Assembly (NCBI GenBank): GCA_024743275.1
Contig: JANSWW010000007.1
Coordinates: forward strand, 151,162 to 215,161
DNA length: 64,000 bases
Reading direction: 5' to 3'
Source of the DNA: Alphaproteobacteria bacterium
Lineage (GTDB): Bacteria; Pseudomonadota; Alphaproteobacteria; JANSWW01
A program made the translations under genes and the position numbers. The notes beneath the pieces are model-generated. The model worked only from the letters and a program-made list of their open reading frames with translations. It ran no database searches and had not been told where the DNA came from. This document shows positions 395 through 15,501 of the stretch, in pieces; position 1 is the stretch's first letter, and every line of letters begins with the position of its first letter.

Positions 395-2577
395 CCGAGG
401 CCCTCGACAGCAAGGCTGGAGGGCGTCAGCGACCGGCCCTCGCCCTGGCCCGAGGCGACATAGTGGTAGTAGACGTCGACCCCAGCGGTGGCGACATCCT
501 TGTTGGCGGCGATATAGGCGCCCGGATCGAAGATCCGACGCCCTTCCGCCTGGCCGAAACTCTGCCAATGGCTCACCAGATCGGCGATACCGAGGCTTGC
601 GAGGTCTGTGTTGAGCATCAGATAGCCGGCGGAATCGAAGCCGGTCACCCGGCCCTCGTTCTTGCCAAAAGCGACATAGTGTTCGCCGGCCTGGGCGTCC
701 GTGAAATTGAGGGCGAGCAGGTCGGGATTGGCGTTGAGATATGCCTCCGCCGAGAGGATACGGTTCTCGTTCGCGCCGAAGGTCTTGTAGTGGGTCAGCG
801 CGTCATTGGCGGCGAGCCCGGCTGCTCCCAGATCCGGATTGGCCACCAGATAGGCGCTGCCGTCGAAGCTTAGCAGGCGGCTCTCCGAATAGCCGAAGGT
901 CACATAGTGATCGAGGGCCGTCTCGGTCGTGATCCCGGCGGTGATCAGATCCGGATTGGCGGCGAGATAGTCCGATGCCGACCAGATGAATCCGTCATTC
1001 TCGGCGATCGTCACCGTGGCCTTCACCGTTTGGACGCCGCCTGCATCGGTGAAGGCGACGGTGAATGTCTCGTTCGCCTCCACCGCGATGTCGCCGAGCA
1101 CCGAAAGGGTCAGCGTCCCCGAGGTCTCGCCCGCCGCAATGGTCATCGTGCCCGCCGCTGCGGTGTAGTCACTGCCCGCCGCCGCCGTGCCGTCGGCGGT
1201 CTGGTAGGTGACGGCGGTGTCCGATGCCTGGGCAGAGGCCAGGGTCACAGTGAGGGTGACGGAACGCGCAAGGCTGTCGCCCTCGGTCACGCTCGCATCG
1301 GCGACGGTGACCAGGCCGGAACTCCCCCCACCGCTATCCGAACCGCTACCAGAATCGCTATCGGTCCCCTGCTCGCCGATTTGGACGAAGACCGGGCTGT
1401 CGGTGAGGGTGAGCGTGGCGGCGTCGATGACCGTGGCCGTGTTGGTGAGGTCGGTGACCGTGATGGTCCCGGAGATCTCTGCGGGGATCGCGGTGCCGCT
1501 GCCCCACAACGCGTAGACATCGCCACCGCTGGTCGTGAACTTGACCGACCCGCTGGCCTCCGTCGACGCCGTAGCCGTCACGGCGGTGAAATCGTCGATC
1601 TTGCCCGCCATCGCCTTATAGGCGTTGTAGGCCGGGTTCCGCGGGACATCGGCGAAGGCCGGCATGTTCGCGCGGTCGGCGTTGGAGAGGTCGAGCAGGT
1701 TCTTCCCCGCCTCGCCCGGAGCGGCGTCGAGGCCCACATAAAGCAGCCTTTCCGCCCCATTGGCCAGGGCGTTGACATGGGTCTTGACGATCCATTTGCC
1801 CCAATCGGCATCCACGATGCTCGCCTGCCCCAGGCCGGGGGAGGATAGTTCGATCTCGGTGATCCAGCGCGGCTTGTCGCCGACCCCCTGAGCGGTGAGG
1901 AAGGTGTTCATGTCGGCCCAGTGAAGATCGTAGGGGCCACCGATCGAATGAAAGGTGATGACGTCCATGTATTGGCCGCCGCCCAGGGCGAAGACATCGC
2001 TCCAGAAGGCTTGGACCTCGGCTTGCGGTCCGGCCAGCCCGGCGGGAACCACAATCGCATCGGGGTCGGCCGCCTTGATCGTCTCATAGCTCAGCTTGAG
2101 GAGATCGAAATACTCCTGTGCGGTCCCGTCAAAGAACAGGATGTCGCTGCCGACCGCCGGCTCGTTGGAGATTTCCCAATATTTGACCGGCTGGGTGAGG
2201 CCCGCCATGTCGTCGACGCCGTCGCCGTCATAGCGTTCGACCAGCGCCGTCAGGAATTCGGCATAGGCGGTCGTATTGACCGGGGCGTGTCGGTAAAGCC
2301 CCAACTCGTCGGCGAAGATGATGCTGCTGGCGGCCGGGCTATGGGTGCCGGACTGGTCCCATTCGGCATAGGGCCATACGGTGGCCTGCAGGTTCTGGCC
2401 GAAGGTCTGGGCGTTCTGGACGTAAGTATCGGAGGCGGTCCAGTTCCTGGAGCCCTGGCTCGGCTCCAGGCCGTTCCAATAGAAGGGGCCGGGATGCGGC
2501 CGTTCCCAGGACGTGCCGATATCCGCAATGGCGTCGTAATACTGCGGATGCATGAAACCCAGGCTGTTCGTCCCCAT
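391..2577 (-). CDS. Secreted-type glycoside hydrolase (GH5-like) fused to a Calx-beta domain and six ~37-aa C-terminal repeats
   Basis: WEISNEP and ITEIE motifs are typical of clan GH-A/GH5 catalytic residues. A Calx-beta-like segment follows ([58 protein letters not shown]). The C-terminus carries repeated YLxANPDLxxAGxxxAxxHYxxFGxxEGR units. There is no N-terminal signal peptide. Confidence 0.7.
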
Positions 2578-2663
2578 CGGCCGATTCCCTCCTCAGCGAT
2601 GAAACACCTTTGGAGAATAGCCGAAACCGCGCCGTCGTTCACCCTATCCGGAGGATGCGGCGT

Positions 2664-3998
2664 TCAGGCCAGCGCGGTCTTGCTCGGGCGGGAGCGGAAC
2701 AGGATCAGGGCGATGATCCCCATATTGGCGAAGTTCCACAGGATGCCGTTGATGAAGGCGAGCTGATAGCTGCCGGTCAGATCGAAGACCAGGCCCGAGA
2801 GCCAGCCGCCCAGCGCCATCCCGATCACGGTCGCCATCATGACCAGGCCGATCCGCTGGCCCGCCTCGCGCGCCGGGAGGTATTCCCGGATGACCACGGC
2901 ATAGCTCGGCACGATCCCGCCCTGGGACAGGCCGAAAATCAGGCTGACCACATAGAGCGAGACCAGCCCGTCGAAGGGGATGTAGAGGAACAGCGCCATG
3001 CATTGCAGGGCGGAGCCGAGCAGCAGCGTCTTCACCCCGCCGATATGGTCGGCCAGAAGGCCGAACAGCAGCCGGCTCGCGACACCGCCGGCCAGCATCA
3101 GCGAGAGCATCTCCGCGCCCACCGCCACGCCATAGCCGAGATCGGCGCAATAGGCGACGATATGGACCTGGGGCATCGACATGGCGACACAGCAGGCGAC
3201 GCCGGCGAAGATCAGCAGCCATTGCAGCATGGCGGGCGATAGGCCGGCGTTGACCGCGGGGGATTCCATCGCCGCCTTCACCTTCTCGTCGGTCTCGGTC
3301 AGATGCGGCGCCTTGCGCAGCAGGAACAGCGACAGCGGAATCATGGTGACCAGGGTGATCACCCCGATCATCTCATAGGCCGCCCGCCAGCCCTCGGCGT
3401 CGATGGCGTCGCGCAGGAAGATCGGCCAGACCACCCCGGCGAGATAGTTGCCGCTGGCCCCGGCGGCGATCGCGATGCCGCGGCGCTTCTTGAACCAATG
3501 GGAGATATCGGCGACCAGCGGGCCGAAGCCCGCGGCCGTTCCCAGGCCGATCAGGACTCCCTGACAGACCGACAGGAACCAAAGACTCTCCGCGCCCGCG
3601 GCCAGGAAATGGCCGCCGCTGATCATGAGGCTGGCGAGGATCAGCACCGGGGTGACCCCGAACCGGTCGACAAGATGCCCCATCGCCACATTGCCGAAGG
3701 CGAAACCGAGCATGGTGGCGGTGTAGGCGAGCGAGGCTTCCGCCCGGGTGGTGCCGAAATCCTGCTCGACGCTGGGCATCGCCAGGATGATCGCCCACAT
3801 GCCGACGCTGCCGATCGTGGCCACGGTCAGCGACATGCACAGCCGGAACCACGCATAGGGGCTGTCCAGAACGGCGCTGGGGTCGCCGGCGTGCCGATGG
3901 GGCTGTCCTGGGTCGGCGGTCACGAAGGGCCTTCTGTCGCAAGGAGTTGATGAAAGTCTTGGGAAAGTTGTCTTTGATCCCGTGAGGATCAGAGCCAT
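2664..3998 (-). CDS. MFS transporter (12-TM, oxalate/formate antiporter-like); start codon uncertain, could be as far in as 3836
   Basis: Long hydrophobic ORF with MFS-like helices and a central loop containing KKRRG. The N-terminal ~50 aa are non-hydrophobic, so an internal Met (MSLTVAT...) is an alternative start. Confidence 0.6.
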
Positions 3999-4093
3999 TT
4001 AATCGGAGGCCGTCACGCCTTAAACCGGCATGGCAGCCCTGCCCGATTTTATGGGTCCTGACCCCAGGCCGATCCGTATCTTGGAGACCCGCC

Positions 4094-4552
4094 ATGACAG
4101 AGACGACAAAGAAAACCTACCGCAAGGACCAGGCCGCTATCGACAAGCTCGACCGGATGCAGTTCGCCGTCACCCAGAACGACGCCACCGAGCGGCCGTT
4201 CAGCGGCAAATACTGGGATCACAAGGAAGAGGGGCTCTATGTCGACATCGTCAGCGGCGAACCCCTGTTCACCTCACTGGACAAGTTCGATAGCCATTGC
4301 GGTTGGCCCAGTTTCACCAAGCCGGTGCAAACCGGCCATATCGTGGAGAAGCGCGACGTTTCCCATGGTATGATTCGGACCGAGGTGCGCTCGACCCATG
4401 GCGACAGCCATCTGGGCCATGTCTTCGACGACGGCCCGGCCCCGACGGGCCTGCGGTACTGCATCAATTCCGCCTCCCTCCGCTTTATCCCGAAGGATAA
4501 GCTGGAGGAGGAAGGGTATGGAGACTATTGGCACCTGTTCGCGACGCCCTGA
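4094..4552 (+). CDS. msrB: Peptide-methionine (R)-S-oxide reductase MsrB
   Basis: CGWPSF and [10 protein letters not shown] motifs; 152 aa, the typical MsrB length. Confidence 0.9.
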
Positions 4553-5250
4553 GGGCCAGCCCGAGCCTGAACCACCTCACCGATCTGGTCCTGTATCGCG
4601 ACGGGCTCGTCCTCGTTCTCAACAAGCCCGCCGGCATCCCGGTCCATGCGGGTCGTGCCGGCGGCCCCAATCTGGAAGATGGCTTTCCCAGCCTGACCTA
4701 CGGCATTCGCCATGTCCCGGCCCTGGCCCATCGGCTCGACCGGGACACAAGCGGCTGCCTGGCCCTCGGCCGGCATCCCAAGGCGCTCAAGAAGCTCGGT
4801 AAGCTGTTCCGCGAGGGGCGGGCCGAAAAGACCTATTGGGCCCTGGTCCGGGGCGTGCCGGTGCGCGAGAGCGGCGTCATCGACGCGCCCCTGCTCAAGG
4901 TCAACCGACGGACCGGCTGGACCGTGAAGGTCGATCCCGCGGGCAAGGCCGCCCGGACCCGTTGGACGCTGAAGGGCAGCCGTGACGGCATCAGCTTTAT
5001 CGAATGCCATCCGGAAACCGGCCGGACCCATCAGATCCGGGTTCATCTCGCCCATCTCGGACTGCCGATCCTGGGCGACGTCGCCTATGGCGGGAATGCA
5101 TCCGACGGGCCCCTGGCGCTGCACGCCCGGCGGCTGGTCCTCCCGCTTGCCGCCTCCAAGCCGACGGTCGACGTCACGGCCCCGCCGCCGGAGGCTTTTG
5201 CAATTAGAGCAACCACGGTTCTCTCAGGCATAGTATTGCGAGAGTTTTAG
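4528..5250 (+). CDS. RluA-family RNA pseudouridine synthase (no S4 domain); TTG start; the 3' end runs into the low-GC insertion
   Basis: [14 protein letters not shown] catalytic-Asp motif plus [12 protein letters not shown]. The last ~15 codons are AT-rich, unlike the rest of the gene. Confidence 0.75.
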
Positions 5251-7133
5251 GTTTTAAATAAGTCTTCTATATCATCATCAATACTAGAATTATCGCGTAT
5301 TTCTTTTTGGCACCAGTGTCTGACTGAATTCATTTCCTTATGGAAATTGTCGTTTATATCTTTGAACGCGCCCTCACAGTCAACCAGAATTCTCTCGATC
5401 TCGTTGTATAACTCTTCGTCAGATTCCGATAGTTCTTGTATATCTTCGCATCGAATCTTGCAGGCGCTATCCGAAAAACTGATTGTGATAGTTAACGGTT
5501 CATCGGACTGACCACGTTCCTGGTAATGATGGACGCTTTTGGCCGTTTGCTTGAGAAATTCGTGGAATATTTTTCCACTGTATGCTTGATATTGTTTCTT
5601 TCCAGAAATTCGAGATGCTATATGCAGAAGTGAGAATAGTTCATCATCAAATGAAAAAGACGTTATGCCTGTGTCTTTTCCAAATTCTTCAAAACAAATT
5701 GTAAATTGTAACTTGCTAAGTGCGTAATAAGGTTTTTCTGGGTTGCGTGATCTGCTGATAGGTTTGAGGTGCTTCTCGAATTGAGGTTCAACAAATTTTT
5801 TTACGAAAAGGGGGGGATTCATGGAGTAGCAGAATTTTGGAAAATCATCGAAATAGCGGTTTTTGAGCCTCTCCATGAATTTATCAATATGTTGGTTCTG
5901 ATAATAAATAAGTCCATATGCTGCAAAATACTCTTGAAAAGATCGGTGTAAAAATGTAAAATATTTTCCATCGCGCTGTATTAAATTGACGGACTCTGAA
6001 AAATCTCTAAGCGTTTTTTGTGGATCAACGTCTATTTTTGCAATTTTATTAGACTTCTGAATTGTTTCTAGAATATCTACCTCGGTAAATTCAATTCTCT
6101 GTTCCATATATGAAACTAGTGAAAAAACCGAGAAAGCATTCCTAAAAACATGAAAATCGAGTTCATTCACCTTCGTAAATTTTTCTTTCGTGCTGTTGTG
6201 CCAATTATAAAGCGCGATAAACGCATGATCATAAAAAATGTTTAGGCTATCAGATATAGTGCCAGTATCGCTAAATGTTAGGAGCATCATCATTGTGAGA
6301 AGTGGAGTTGACATAAGGCTTTTTTTACTCGAAAAGTCCTTTTTCATTATTTCTTTGAGAAATTCTCTTTTTGTTTTTTCGTGAAATGGTAGCTTTTCGA
6401 TTAAACTAATATTTTGATCTAAATTAAGTTTGCAACACTCGAATCCATTAAAGCCCGACCAAGAGTTGAATCTTTGATTCAGCCTACTTGATACGATGAA
6501 TCGACATTTTTGGAATTCACTTGAAATTTCAATAATTTCGTTTTCAACTCTGTGCTTCTTGTCTTCAACAATCTCGTCAAATCCATCTAGAATAAAAGTG
6601 AATTTTCCTATTCCCATTAGATGGCGAAATGTATCCTCATCTAGTTTACCGCTCTCAGATATTGTGGTGCGTGCTAGTGTAACCAACCCTGATCCTAGTG
6701 TATTTTCTGTTGAGAGATTATTGAGCATCCTCAGTTCAAGGAATATGGGAATTGTGTTTGTTTCTTCTAAAATTACATTCCATAAAAACCTCATGAATAT
6801 CGTTTTTCCTGCCCCACCATTTCCTTGTATTATGACGTTTTTGTTTTTTAGAATCTCATTTATAATTTCAGAGTCTGGGAGAATTGTGTCATTATTTTTG
6901 AAATTCAGGGGTATGTATATTTCATTAAGGCCTACATCGGAGTCTTTCTTTAAAAGTATTTTGATTTTGGTCGTCTTATTCTTGGTTCTTGCAACATAAG
7001 GCTTGAAGTCTTCAAATGCGGCAGTCCATTTTTTTCTAATTGTGGGCTGTAAATGAAGTGTAATTCGATTCCAGAGCTCCTTTACGGTTTCTATGGTTAA
7101 CTCAGCTGTATATTTTTCTGCGGAGAAGCTCAT
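5247..7133 (-). CDS. NACHT-clade STAND NTPase (bacterial NLR-like protein); candidate antiphage defence protein
   Basis: Walker A IIQGNGGAGKT and Walker B FTFILDGFDEI (the hhhhDGhDE NACHT signature), sensor-1 RFIVSSR, and STPLLTMMML (GxP-like NACHT motif). The ~95-aa N-terminal region and ~330-aa C-terminal region have no recognisable domain. An AAGGA Shine-Dalgarno sequence lies 11 nt upstream of the ATG. Confidence 0.8.
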   Translation of the reverse strand: MSFSAEKYTAELTIETVKELWNRITLHLQPTIRKKWTAAFEDFKPYVARTKNKTTKIKILLKKDSDVGLNEIYIPLNFKNNDTILPDSEIINEILKNKNVIIQGNGGAGKTIFMRFLWNVILEETNTIPIFLELRMLNNLSTENTLGSGLVTLARTTISESGKLDEDTFRHLMGIGKFTFILDGFDEIVEDKKHRVENEIIEISSEFQKCRFIVSSRLNQRFNSWSGFNGFECCKLNLDQNISLIEKLPFHEKTKREFLKEIMKKDFSSKKSLMSTPLLTMMMLLTFSDTGTISDSLNIFYDHAFIALYNWHNSTKEKFTKVNELDFHVFRNAFSVFSLVSYMEQRIEFTEVDILETIQKSNKIAKIDVDPQKTLRDFSESVNLIQRDGKYFTFLHRSFQEYFAAYGLIYYQNQHIDKFMERLKNRYFDDFPKFCYSMNPPLFVKKFVEPQFEKHLKPISRSRNPEKPYYALSKLQFTICFEEFGKDTGITSFSFDDELFSLLHIASRISGKKQYQAYSGKIFHEFLKQTAKSVHHYQERGQSDEPLTITISFSDSACKIRCEDIQELSESDEELYNEIERILVDCEGAFKDINDNFHKEMNSVRHWCQKEIRDNSSIDDDIEDLFKT

Positions 7134-7446
7134 TGGGCTGCGATCCTTAGAGTATGAATTCTAAATTTTTTATCAATACGAGCAAATATGACCAGAGATA
7201 CTTCAAGATGCAAGAAATATGTTGGTTTATAGAAAGCCTTGATAGAGAATCTTTCGGTTTGAGGTTGCTGCGGTGAGCATGCTTCCGTCACGTTGTTTTG
7301 CAGACTATCGTGTGGTGTGTCAGTGCGTACTGCAGGGGGTTTCTTGGCTAAAATGGCTATGCCGTAAACGACGTTTGACAGAGTTCATGTAAAGTAAAAT
7401 TTATGTAATAAGTTTTATTGAAGCCCTATTAAGAATTTTATTATTT

Positions 7447-7474
7447 GACAAGCGGTCGCATGCGTCAGCTTGTC
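7447..7474. promoter_or_regulatory. 28-bp imperfect palindrome (gacaagc-ggtcgcatgcgtca-gcttgtc), an operator-like site in the AT-rich leader upstream of the NACHT gene
   Basis: Outer 7-bp arms are perfect reverse complements and the core cgcatgcg is itself palindromic. A TTGACA hexamer overlaps the 5' arm. Confidence 0.4.
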
Positions 7475-7552
7475 CTCATCCATATCGGTTAACGTTCCGT
7501 AAAGCTTGATGGGTGAAGGGGAAAACATCTTGCTAAGACAAGGAGACGACCT

Positions 7553-7648
7553 ATGGCCGATCTTGCTTTCCCGCTTCTTAATATGCTGATCATTGGTTTC
7601 GGTATCGCGTTCTGTGCGAAAGAACTCTACGCGCTGAACAAGCAGTAG
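7553..7648 (+). CDS. 31-aa hydrophobic micro-protein (MADLAFPLLNMLIIGFGIAFCAKELYALNKQ), predicted single transmembrane helix
   Basis: A strong AAGGAG Shine-Dalgarno sequence lies 8 nt upstream of the ATG. Intermediate GC (~47%). Sits at the right edge of the islet, divergent from the NACHT gene. Confidence 0.35.
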   Translation: MADLAFPLLNMLIIGFGIAFCAKELYALNKQ

Positions 7649-7659
7649 GCGGACCATTT

Positions 7660-7743
7660 TCTGCGGGCCGAGGCCGTCGATCCCGCTCGGGGCGCGCTCG
7701 GGGCGCGCTCGGGGCGGGTGTCGAGACGGAACCGGCCCGCAGA
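7660..7743. repeat. Perfect 11-bp inverted repeat (tctgcgggccg / cggcccgcaga) enclosing three tandem 11-bp units (gctcggggcgc, 7685-7717)
   Basis: Read directly from the sequence; the arms extend to ~15 nt if one T indel is allowed. Confidence 0.6.
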
Positions 7744-7850
7744 AATGCTCCAATTATCCCGCGACCCGTCGTTTAGCCCAAAACCCGCCCCCGACTTCGG
7801 CGTATCAATAGCCATCACCGCAATCCCAAATCCTCCCAGGAGATGCGACG

Positions 7851-13800: not shown

Positions 13801-15501
13801 TTACGAGTGCGCGACCGATGGGCCGGTCGCCGGGACGGTTTTCCCGTCGGGAATGGCGACGATCCCCAGCGGCTCAACCCGTCCGCGCACCTCCGTTTCG
13901 TGCGTCGCGAACCCGCCGAGATCGATGCCGGCCCAGTTGCCGGCGGTTTCGGAGACGATCAGTTGAACCTGATAGTCCTTGGTCAGACTCTCGAGCCGGC
14001 TGGCGATGTTGACCGTGTCCCCGATCGCCGTCATGCCGGTGGCATCCCCATAGCCCATTTCCCCGACGATGCAGGGGCCTGCGTGAACGCCGATACCGAT
14101 CCGGATCGGTTCCGGCAGATCGTCGGCCAGCGACGCGTTCAGCCGCTCCAGATTCTCCGCCATGCGCCTGGCCGCGTCGATCGCCTGCCGGCTGCCGGTC
14201 GCCGGACCCTCCTCGATGCCGAATAGGGCCATCACCCCGTCGCCGATGAATTTGTCGAGCTTCCCGCCTGCCTGGCTCACCGCCGCTCCCATCTCGGCGA
14301 AATAGCGGTTCAGCAGGTACACCGTGTCATAGGGGAGTTTCGCTTCGGCAAGTTTCGTAAAGCTGCGGATATCGGCGAACAGGACCGCGATCTCCCTTTC
14401 CTCTCCTGCGGTGCTGGTCCGCTGAATGCCGGGGGCGCCGCGGACGGAGGGCGGGATCAGGGGCGTGATCTGCAGGTCGGTCTCGGGACGGAGCTGACAG
14501 GCGAGCCTGACCCGGGGCGGGGCGGAGACCCGCCGCAGCACCTTCCGTTCCGCCTCGCTCGCCGCCGGCAGCGTGTCGGCGCCCCTGTCGACCCGGATCC
14601 GGCAGGTCGAGCAGCGGCCCCGGCCGCCGCACACGCTGGCATGGGGAATGCCGCCGATCCGGCTCGCCTCCAGAACCGTGGTGCCCTTGGCGATCTGAAC
14701 CTTCTGGCCTTGCGGATAGGTGATCCGTATCCGGCCGGCCCGCCGGTCGAGACTGTGGAGGGTGATCCGCGCCAACACCAGGAACACCAGCAGGAGGGCG
14801 TAGGCCGCCCAGATCCGGTCCCGCGCGTCGGAAATCTTCTCCGCCATGCCCGGGAGGGTGGCCTTGGACGAGGTGAGCGCTTCGCTCAGCCATGCCCGGT
14901 CCTGCGCCATCTGCTGGACGAACAGACCGGCGTCGACCCAGCCGATCATGGCCACGGTCGGCACGATCACCGCCGGGGTGAAGAGATAGGGCCGCCAGCG
15001 CCGGTATCCCGGCTTGGACGACAGCCAGAAGTCGATGCCGATGCAGCCGTGAACCCAGGCCGCCAGCACCGCCGCCGCCTGAACGAAGCCGGTATAGGGC
15101 ACGAAAACCCAGTGGGCGAGCAGCACGAAGCGGTAGTGGGGCTCGAGCGCGAAGAACTCCTGGGCGAGGCGGGTCGCGGTGACATGCTCGATCAACAGGA
15201 AGGGCAGAACGGCCCCCAGCGCCAACTGGGCGACCTCCTGACGGGTCATCGACTTGAGCCTTTCGCGCAGCAGAAAGGCCCTGGCGGCGATCAGAAGATG
15301 GACGGCAAGCGCCCCGTATAGGGCGATGGTGCCCGGCCGCGACTGCCACACCGCCATGAAGATCTCCCGCCCCGCTTCCAGGGCGCCGATCGAGATGATC
15401 CCGATCATATGGTTCACGAAATGGCTGGTCACATAGACGAAGAGCGTGAGCCCGCTCCACAGCCGCGCCCGGTCCACCCAGGCGGTCGCGGCCTCCGCCA
15501 A
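13801..15501 (-). CDS. Membrane-anchored class III adenylate/guanylate cyclase with an internal 2Fe-2S ferredoxin-type domain
   Basis: About six N-terminal TM helices, then CGGRGRCSTCR...C (plant-type ferredoxin Cys pattern), then the CYCc motifs VLFADIRSFT and KFIGDGVMALFG. Confidence 0.8.
   Translation of the reverse strand: MAEAATAWVDRARLWSGLTLFVYVTSHFVNHMIGIISIGALEAGREIFMAVWQSRPGTIALYGALAVHLLIAARAFLLRERLKSMTRQEVAQLALGAVLPFLLIEHVTATRLAQEFFALEPHYRFVLLAHWVFVPYTGFVQAAAVLAAWVHGCIGIDFWLSSKPGYRRWRPYLFTPAVIVPTVAMIGWVDAGLFVQQMAQDRAWLSEALTSSKATLPGMAEKISDARDRIWAAYALLLVFLVLARITLHSLDRRAGRIRITYPQGQKVQIAKGTTVLEASRIGGIPHASVCGGRGRCSTCRIRVDRGADTLPAASEAERKVLRRVSAPPRVRLACQLRPETDLQITPLIPPSVRGAPGIQRTSTAGEEREIAVLFADIRSFTKLAEAKLPYDTVYLLNRYFAEMGAAVSQAGGKLDKFIGDGVMALFGIEEGPATGSRQAIDAARRMAENLERLNASLADDLPEPIRIGIGVHAGPCIVGEMGYGDATGMTAIGDTVNIASRLESLTKDYQVQLIVSETAGNWAGIDLGGFATHETEVRGRVEPLGIVAIPDGKTVPATGPSVAHS

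Follow-up and report, generated by a model that had tools for sequence, protein, structure and literature searches.

Clade 14 is the most abundant clade of the bNACHT proteins (10.1101/2024.12.17.629029). It contains bNACHT01, bNACHT02, bNACHT11, bNACHT12 and bNACHT23, from E. coli or Klebsiella, which combine a NACHT module with a rapidly diversifying C-terminal extension that was named SNaCT by Kibby et al. (10.1101/2022.07.19.500537). All five have been shown to defend E. coli against phages, and the defence-active members are each encoded as one gene per operon and work from a single cloned gene (Table S2 of Kibby et al., 10.1101/2022.07.19.500537). The clade also includes alphaproteobacterial representatives classed as 'NACHT' only, from Reyranella (WP_148283409.1) and from Rhodospirillaceae bacterium SYSU D60015 (10.1101/2022.07.19.500537). 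Here we compare these proteins with the product of a NACHT gene in a 64,000-nucleotide stretch (the window) of the genome of an Alphaproteobacteria bacterium (GenBank assembly GCA_024743275.1, contig JANSWW010000007.1, positions 151,162 to 215,161 of the forward strand). The gene probably encodes a divergent alphaproteobacterial member of the clade 14 bNACHT type, a stand-alone anti-phage sensor that was acquired horizontally.

The mode of action of bNACHT11 provides the frame for this comparison. Its SNaCT domain (residues 466–628) binds several unrelated phage proteins by beta-augmentation and hydrophobic contacts, and binding together with ATP drives the formation of a heptameric wheel (10.1101/2024.12.17.629029; cryo-electron microscopy structure PDB 9ORF). 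The C-terminal tail (residues 633–639) docks into the neighbouring SNaCT domain and is needed for both oligomerisation and defence, and an N-terminal extension of ~45 residues (consensus MDPIT) is the effector, causing a plasmolysis-type death; either of the substitutions D2A and P3A abolishes defence (10.1101/2024.12.17.629029). The protein studied here (the query) had previously been described from its sequence alone as a NACHT protein with unrecognised N- and C-terminal domains and a possible new sensor/effector architecture, and we refer to that description below as the sequence-only reading.

Relationship to the clade 14 bNACHTs

The gene is a single unbroken open reading frame (ORF; 5247–7133 of the window) of 628 codons and a TAA stop, as seen in the ORF list and the translation. 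It lies on the minus strand, a point on which the sequence-only reading was silent. The start codon is ATG, with an AAGGA Shine–Dalgarno-like sequence ~10 nucleotides ahead of it and an in-frame TAA 15 nucleotides upstream. An identical protein (P0001 among the homologues) is annotated at NCBI as 'MAG: NACHT domain-containing protein [Alphaproteobacteria bacterium]'. The Pfam NACHT family (PF05729) matches the query at 30.7 bits against a gathering cut-off of 26.7 (E = 3e-7), and matches 60 of 60 members of the query's family. All four motifs on which the sequence-only reading had relied were found, namely GNGGAGKT (residues 104–111), ILDGFDE (181–187), VSSR (214–217) and STPLLTMMML (275–284). 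The first, Walker A, fits GxxxxGK[ST] and has G107 and K110 invariant across 60 homologues; the second, Walker B, fits the D[GAS]hDE NACHT signature given by Kibby et al. (10.1101/2022.07.19.500537), with D183, D186 and E187 invariant in the same alignment. Every family-invariant residue is kept by the query, R217, H312 and HRSFQEYF included.

One search returned 509 homologues. Apart from the identical protein, all of them are at most 39 % identical to the query, the closest aligning end to end, and most of those among the matches listed are 600–650 amino acids long. Their hosts are mainly Rhizobiales and Rhodobacterales, including Sinorhizobium, Mesorhizobium, Agrobacterium, Bosea, Brucella and Ruegeria. 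When 60 sequences are aligned, residues ~46 to ~455 prove strongly conserved and the last ~170 hypervariable.

The family was compared with the tested bNACHTs, for which the first ~400 amino acids were taken from Table S2 (including comparators from outside clade 14), with a full-length bNACHT02-type protein recovered from the E. coli plasmid NZ_CP092255, and with a bNACHT02-family profile built from 54 homologue sequences. By BLASTP, the query aligns colinearly with bNACHT11(1–399), residues 15–397 against 15–399, at E = 2e-26 and 24 % identity, and it matches the full-length bNACHT02-type protein at E = 4e-32. The family profile matches bNACHT02 with a probability of 99.9 (E = 3e-33), and hhalign of the two family profiles gives a probability of 100 % (E = 3e-49, 445 columns), with query residues 3–460 set against bNACHT02 residues 3–467 in an alignment that ends where SNaCT begins. 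Because this alignment runs from residue 3 to ~460/467, the N-terminal extension, in register with bNACHT02 residues 3–50, is homologous together with the entire NACHT module, and these comparisons argue strongly for homology and colinearity with the clade 14 bNACHTs. The family hidden Markov model (HMM) found seven of the seven tested clade 14 proteins at 1e-45 to 1e-55, with matches that span the full module; outside the clade, the best-scoring proteins, likewise represented by their first ~400 amino acids, reached 3e-21 and 9e-14, with matches confined to the P-loop core, and bNACHT28, of which the whole NACHT module was available, gave no match. Judged by HMM and profile scores rather than by a tree, the NACHT module thus appears closer to clade 14 than to other bNACHT clades. 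A 2026 survey of STAND proteins (10.64898/2026.01.04.697583) says nothing specific about the query's family.

AlphaFold2 (AF2), run with the family alignment, produced a model with a predicted local distance difference test (pLDDT) score of 88.6 and a predicted template modelling (pTM) score of 0.83. In this model two N-terminal helices (residues 5–25 and 30–55) precede the NACHT module, the C-terminal domain is a compact alpha/beta fold of helices and four strands, the strands being paired as two hairpins, and a long helix (587–627) closes the chain. Several boundaries drawn in the sequence-only reading move as a result of these comparisons. The N-terminus that it put at ~95 amino acids is really a helical extension of ~45, residues ~46–95 being the conserved pre-P-loop part of the NACHT module, and its unrecognised C-terminus of ~330 amino acids was overstated, since ~300–455 is the conserved helical and winged-helix part of NACHT and the additional domain amounts to ~170 amino acids (456–628). 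The CKIRCEDIQ segment, which it placed at the end of the protein, lies at residues 558–566 in a predicted beta-strand, and the richness in Lys, Glu, Phe and Asp that it noted is present at a modest level and largely follows from the 35 % guanine–cytosine (GC) content of the gene. Its observation that TPR, WD40, LRR and known effector domains are missing is borne out by scans of Pfam, NCBIfam and PADLOC, in which the query termini had no match, and the AlphaFold check that it had called for on the C-terminus was run and gave a model free of any repeat array. The suggestion that the architecture is new or unusual among characterised STAND defence proteins, however, is not supported: a short N-terminal extension, NACHT module, SNaCT-like sensor and tail is the known layout of the clade 14 bNACHTs, five of which defend E. 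coli.

The best Foldseek matches of the full model are the eukaryotic NLRs NLRC4, NOD2 and NLRP3 (E from 5e-12 to 1e-8). In profile comparison, the match to NLRP3 covers its P-loop region and its FQEFFAA winged-helix motif, HRSFQEYFAA (396–405) aligning with NLRP3 FIHMTFQEFFAA. However, these proteins are 12–15 % identical to the query, and eukaryotic NLRs carry LRR sensors and CARD or PYD effectors, of which the query has none. There was no PDB sequence match when the query was used as a single sequence.

The N-terminal extension

To judge from their sequences, the N-termini of the family resemble the clade 14 MDPIT consensus and the broader 'MEPIS' death motif. Near the start, [DE]P is present in 16 of 59 family members and D.N in 27 of 59; many begin ...(I/V/F)DPN.(V/I), and one (P0120) begins MVTDPIIT. 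A D-P or D.N motif is similarly present in 27 of the 54 bNACHT02-family members. The query itself begins MSFSAEKY and has no MDPIT- or MEPIS-like motif. The D-P motif is not universal in the clade, because bNACHT01 (MDIIQEL) and bNACHT12 (MDLVFQEL) also lack the proline, and yet both defend.

A short N-terminal helix that induces death when clustered is also a feature of the Bell/Hell-type 'MEPIS' proteins, such as Bab, Avs2/Avast2 and HELLP (10.1101/2024.11.07.622273). The query differs from these in having neither the motif nor a globular Bell domain, and the likeness is one of a short motif that stops short of demonstrated homology. The sequence-only reading had suggested a minimal or absent fused effector; 'minimal' is apt, 'absent' is not, the short N-terminal extension being the effector in clade 14.

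The C-terminal domain and tail

The C-terminal domain (456–628) is presumed to be a SNaCT-like sensor on the grounds of its position, size, hypervariability and non-repeat form. It is ~170 amino acids long, like those of bNACHT02 and bNACHT11 (SNaCT at 445–634 and 445–639 in Table S1 of Kibby et al.), it directly follows the NACHT module, and Pfam scans of the query and its family found no repeat families. Mean column entropy is 3.33 bits here versus 1.80 bits in the NACHT module (Mann–Whitney p = 2e-53), and mean pairwise identity is 12 % versus 44 %, a pair of differences which reproduces the SNaCT hallmark of Kibby et al.; the C-terminal domain of the bNACHT02 family is hypervariable as well. 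The domain of the query is, by sequence, an orphan. It may resemble MHC-like platforms. A fold search with the C-terminal domain against BFVD (viral) returned nothing significant (best E = 0.075).

The hypervariable region of the family alignment ends in a conserved tail, with the consensus SLDEILGL and the form DIEDLFKT in the query. The tail of bNACHT02 is ALSDIFGI, and others in its family are ALKEILGF and AIKDLFGF, so that a pattern of A-L-x-D/E-h-F-G/D-F/L can be set beside the S-L-D-E-I-L-G-L of the query's family; the two appear similar in character, the tail of the query's family being acidic-hydrophobic.

Among the closest described counterparts is bNACHT11 of Klebsiella pneumoniae (WP_114260439.1, 639 amino acids), which has nearly the same length, an extension of ~45 amino acids, a NACHT core at 43–464 (~46–455 in the query), a non-repeat sensor of ~165 amino acids and a short tail. 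Both are single-gene systems with low-GC genes. However, the two cannot be aligned by sequence in their C-terminal domains, MDPIT of bNACHT11 is missing from the query, and the host of bNACHT11 is an enterobacterium whereas that of the query is a high-GC alphaproteobacterium. The highest HMM scores (1e-55) belong to bNACHT04, bNACHT22 and bNACHT24, clade 14 proteins of the 'NACHT' only class, which at 652 amino acids are similar to the query in length and whose C-terminal region is likewise not recognised as SNaCT by the profiles of Kibby et al. They differ from it in their N-terminus (MQPV...), and Table S2 gives no defence phenotype for them.

Proposed mechanism and alternative explanations

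By analogy with bNACHT11, the protein would be an autoinhibited monomer in the uninfected cell. Its variable C-terminal domain would bind one or more phage proteins, which would allow an ATP-dependent, wheel-like oligomer to form through NACHT–NACHT contacts, and the C-terminal tail would dock into the adjacent sensor domain and stabilise the wheel. The clustered N-terminal extensions may then damage the envelope in a plasmolysis-like death and abort the infection. This output step would be the least certain here, and it is the least secure part of the analogy because D2A and P3A inactivate bNACHT11 and the query has no D-P. The view taken in the sequence-only reading, of a STAND protein of the NACHT type whose C-terminal sensor is free of repeats, whose N-terminal part is minimal and whose role is probably in defence, agrees with the homology to defence-active bNACHTs.

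Several observations weigh against the assignment to a clade 14-type sensor. Besides the missing D-P of 'MDPIT', the first helix of the query is one of the least hydrophobic in its family (rank 6 of 59). No Pfam SNaCT match was obtained in the query, nor among the 25 families listed for its family. When the C-terminal domains alone were compared with the bNACHT02 family, hhalign gave a probability of 3 %, the only local alignment of the domain joining the terminal helices and tails end to end (E = 0.014, probability 3 %), and phmmer with the query C-terminal domain recovered only the query itself from 1.84 billion representatives. Furthermore, among the best-scoring of the tested relatives are bNACHT04 and bNACHT22, for which Table S2 records no defence phenotype. 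The failure to detect a sequence relationship to SNaCT is weak evidence, because bNACHT02 itself escapes SNaCT1 (PF22710), a model that does match a Vibrio homologue.

The alternative that best survives is that the gene belongs to the same family and has a different or lost output, through a diverged N-terminal effector, another killing route (e.g. ATP depletion or host-factor recruitment), or decay into a non-functional copy. The query has neither D-P nor D.N, at a position where substitution inactivates bNACHT11, its first helix carries more charge and has lower hydrophobicity than the first helix of most relatives, and it forms a long branch, no more than 39 % identical to any other protein. 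However, the ORF is intact with every family-invariant residue in place, two proteins without the proline (bNACHT01 and bNACHT12) still defend, and the N-terminal helices match those of bNACHT02 in register. We regard a changed or lost output as unlikely, while giving it some weight.

The query might instead be the sensor and ATPase of a multi-gene system with its effector encoded elsewhere, either through an adaptor-like N-terminus, on EAD or Death-like logic, or in a MADS-like arrangement. Such a system would account for the lack of a recognisable fused enzymatic or pore-forming effector domain, and the PADLOC mad8 model is weakly matched by 38 of 60 family members (best 1.1e-5). The match of one of these (P0009), however, covers profile positions 22–100 of 314, that is, the P-loop region only, and no mad gene lies alongside. 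There is one gene in the island, its neighbours (MFS, MsrB, RluA-like, TauD and alcohol dehydrogenase) differ at three homologue loci, and the clade 14 bNACHTs with demonstrated defence act from a single cloned gene, all of which makes a dispersed system quite improbable. The least probable reading by our estimate, as a STAND NTPase with a role other than defence, for example in transcriptional or signalling regulation, draws on the metabolic character of the flanking genes and is opposed by the absence of a helix-turn-helix (HTH) or other DNA-binding or output domain, the strong and specific homology to validated anti-phage bNACHTs, a hypervariable sensor of the kind typical of host–parasite conflict, and a patchy, horizontally acquired, low-GC, single-gene distribution.

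Three named candidates were considered and set aside. The first was mad8/MADS, for which similarity is limited to the P-loop and the query itself has no PADLOC match; the second was the Avs family, with one weak match in 60 members. The third was an HTH regulator of the MalT, AfsR or GutR type, a possibility that the sequence-only reading had named as one that would count against its proposal; no DNA-binding domain was found in Pfam or NCBIfam, and the AF2 model has no HTH beyond the NACHT winged helix. The silence of PADLOC on the query is uninformative, because PADLOC-DB 2.0 also misses bNACHT02 and a bNACHT11-like protein, as it does the SNaCT1-containing Vibrio homologue; judging from its failure on bNACHT02, it has no model for clade 14. 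Its candidate model PDC-S60 is matched by 9 of 60 family members (best 1.8e-14), and a PADLOC scan of ten family members found no PDC-S60 carriers.

If the gene is a clade 14-type sensor, as we think probable, a bNACHT11-like abortive-infection sensor would be represented by a large uncharacterised lineage in the Alphaproteobacteria (Rhizobiales, Rhodobacterales and the source metagenome-assembled genome), and the most abundant clade of bacterial NLRs would reach into plant-associated and marine bacteria. What remains new at this locus is the orphan sensor domain, the missing D-P motif and the uncharacterised alphaproteobacterial family. The divergent natural variants that the family offers, with sensors at ~12 % pairwise identity, N-termini with and without D-P and a conserved tail, could help to define which features of bNACHT11 are general, and genes of this kind are missed by the PADLOC-DB 2.0 release. 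The features of the locus are listed in Table 1.

Table 1. Position of the gene, its domains and motifs, and the surrounding island in the 64,000-nucleotide window
Feature	Position	Strand	Basis
Complete coding sequence, 628 amino acids, stand-alone bNACHT-type NLR-related protein	5247..7133	-	ORF list, translation
N-terminal extension, residues 1-45, helical hairpin, presumed effector segment, without D-P motif	6999..7133	-	AF2, hhalign, motif statistics
NACHT module, residues 46-455: pre-P-loop strands, nucleotide-binding domain, helical domain, winged helix, further helical part	5769..6998	-	60-sequence alignment, hhalign, Foldseek
Walker A / P-loop GNGGAGKT, residues 104-111	6801..6824	-	60-sequence alignment
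Walker B ILDGFDE, residues 181-187, NACHT signature D[GAS]hDE	6573..6593	-	60-sequence alignment
Winged-helix motif HRSFQEYFAA, residues 396-405, common to NLRP3 and bNACHT02	5919..5948	-	Alignments
C-terminal SNaCT-like domain, residues 456-620, compact alpha/beta, hypervariable, presumed sensor	5274..5768	-	
C-terminal tail DIEDLFKT, residues 621-628, acidic-hydrophobic motif	5250..5273	-	Family and bNACHT02 tail comparison
Single-gene low-GC island	5196..7600	.	GC profile; left edge inside 3' end of convergent rluA-like gene
AT-rich non-coding region upstream of the gene, 37-45 % GC, presumed promoter/regulatory	7134..7550	.	GC

Genomic context

The gene has a GC content of 35.3 %, compared with 63.8 % for the window, and the island in which it lies consists of this one gene and ~420 nucleotides of AT-rich upstream DNA. 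One flank carries genes for a Calx-beta protein, an MFS transporter and MsrB together with the convergent gene of an RluA-type pseudouridine synthase, and the other carries those for TauD, a zinc alcohol dehydrogenase and an FMN-binding protein. Across 55 rluA loci of other Alphaproteobacteria, there is no case of a NACHT gene beside rluA. The gene is a horizontally acquired single-gene islet and not an ancestral neighbour, because of its low GC content, its housekeeping neighbours and its absence beside rluA in these 55 loci. The 55 loci have no conserved synteny and include no close relative (identity of at most 60 %), and they revealed no precise insertion scar. The search for island boundaries turned up neither a tRNA nor a target-site duplication, and any terminal repeats, direct or inverted, were unconvincing; promoter and terminator scans gave results at or below shuffle expectation.

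Homologues in Sinorhizobium and Mesorhizobium are likewise lone genes among unrelated housekeeping genes, one of them beside an IS66 element, and form low-GC islets (38–47 % versus ~63 %). The neighbours at three homologue loci are completely different, with no conserved partner gene. bNACHT02 resembles the query in being a low-GC gene (31 % against flanks of 42–47 %), but it is found on small plasmids beside hns and hha, whereas the query is chromosomal and lies between housekeeping genes. On the E. coli plasmid NZ_CP092255 it lies directly downstream of hha and an hns-family gene (2336–4991). A 187-nucleotide sequence that runs from the end of the hns-family gene through the intergenic region into the beginning of bNACHT02 matches 18 of the 5426 complete E. 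coli genomes searched, at 21 places, of which 20 are on plasmids. The position of the very AT-rich bNACHT02 beside genes for xenogeneic silencing may offer a clue to the control of its expression.

At the left edge of the island, the last ~17 codons (5196–5250) of the rluA-like gene (4528–5250, plus strand) lie inside the low-GC DNA, and its TAG stop (5248–5250) overlaps that of the convergent NACHT gene, a TAA (5247–5249). In most comparisons with orthologues, the RluA protein ceases to be similar at about residue 221 or before, and the insertion appears to have taken the place of the original 3' end of rluA. At 60 %, the nearest RluA homologue is that of Desertibaculum subflavum SYSU D60015, the same strain that contributes the clade 14 protein WP_162914864.1 to Table S1 of Kibby et al.; in that strain the NACHT gene for WP_162914864.1 is not adjacent to rluA.

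At the right edge of the island lies a small ORF for a hydrophobic peptide of 31 amino acids, MADLAFPLLNMLIIGFGIAFCAKELYALNKQ (7553–7648, plus strand), which is also called as a gene on the Logan contig. After it comes a 21-nucleotide inverted repeat (7658–7678 and 7725–7745) that encloses three perfect tandem copies of CGCTCGGGGCG (7684–7716). Within the AT-rich region, ~320 nucleotides upstream of the NACHT start, is a 28-nucleotide near-perfect palindrome, GACAAGCGGTCGCATGCGTCAGCTTGTC (7447–7474), which overlaps the sole upstream promoter-like match on the minus strand (7468–7440) and could be an operator or a boundary element.

Further along the window (13801–15501, minus strand), a protein of 566 amino acids has both a 2Fe-2S ferredoxin domain (Fer2) and a class III adenylate/guanylate cyclase domain, a pairing that points to what is possibly a redox-linked cyclase.

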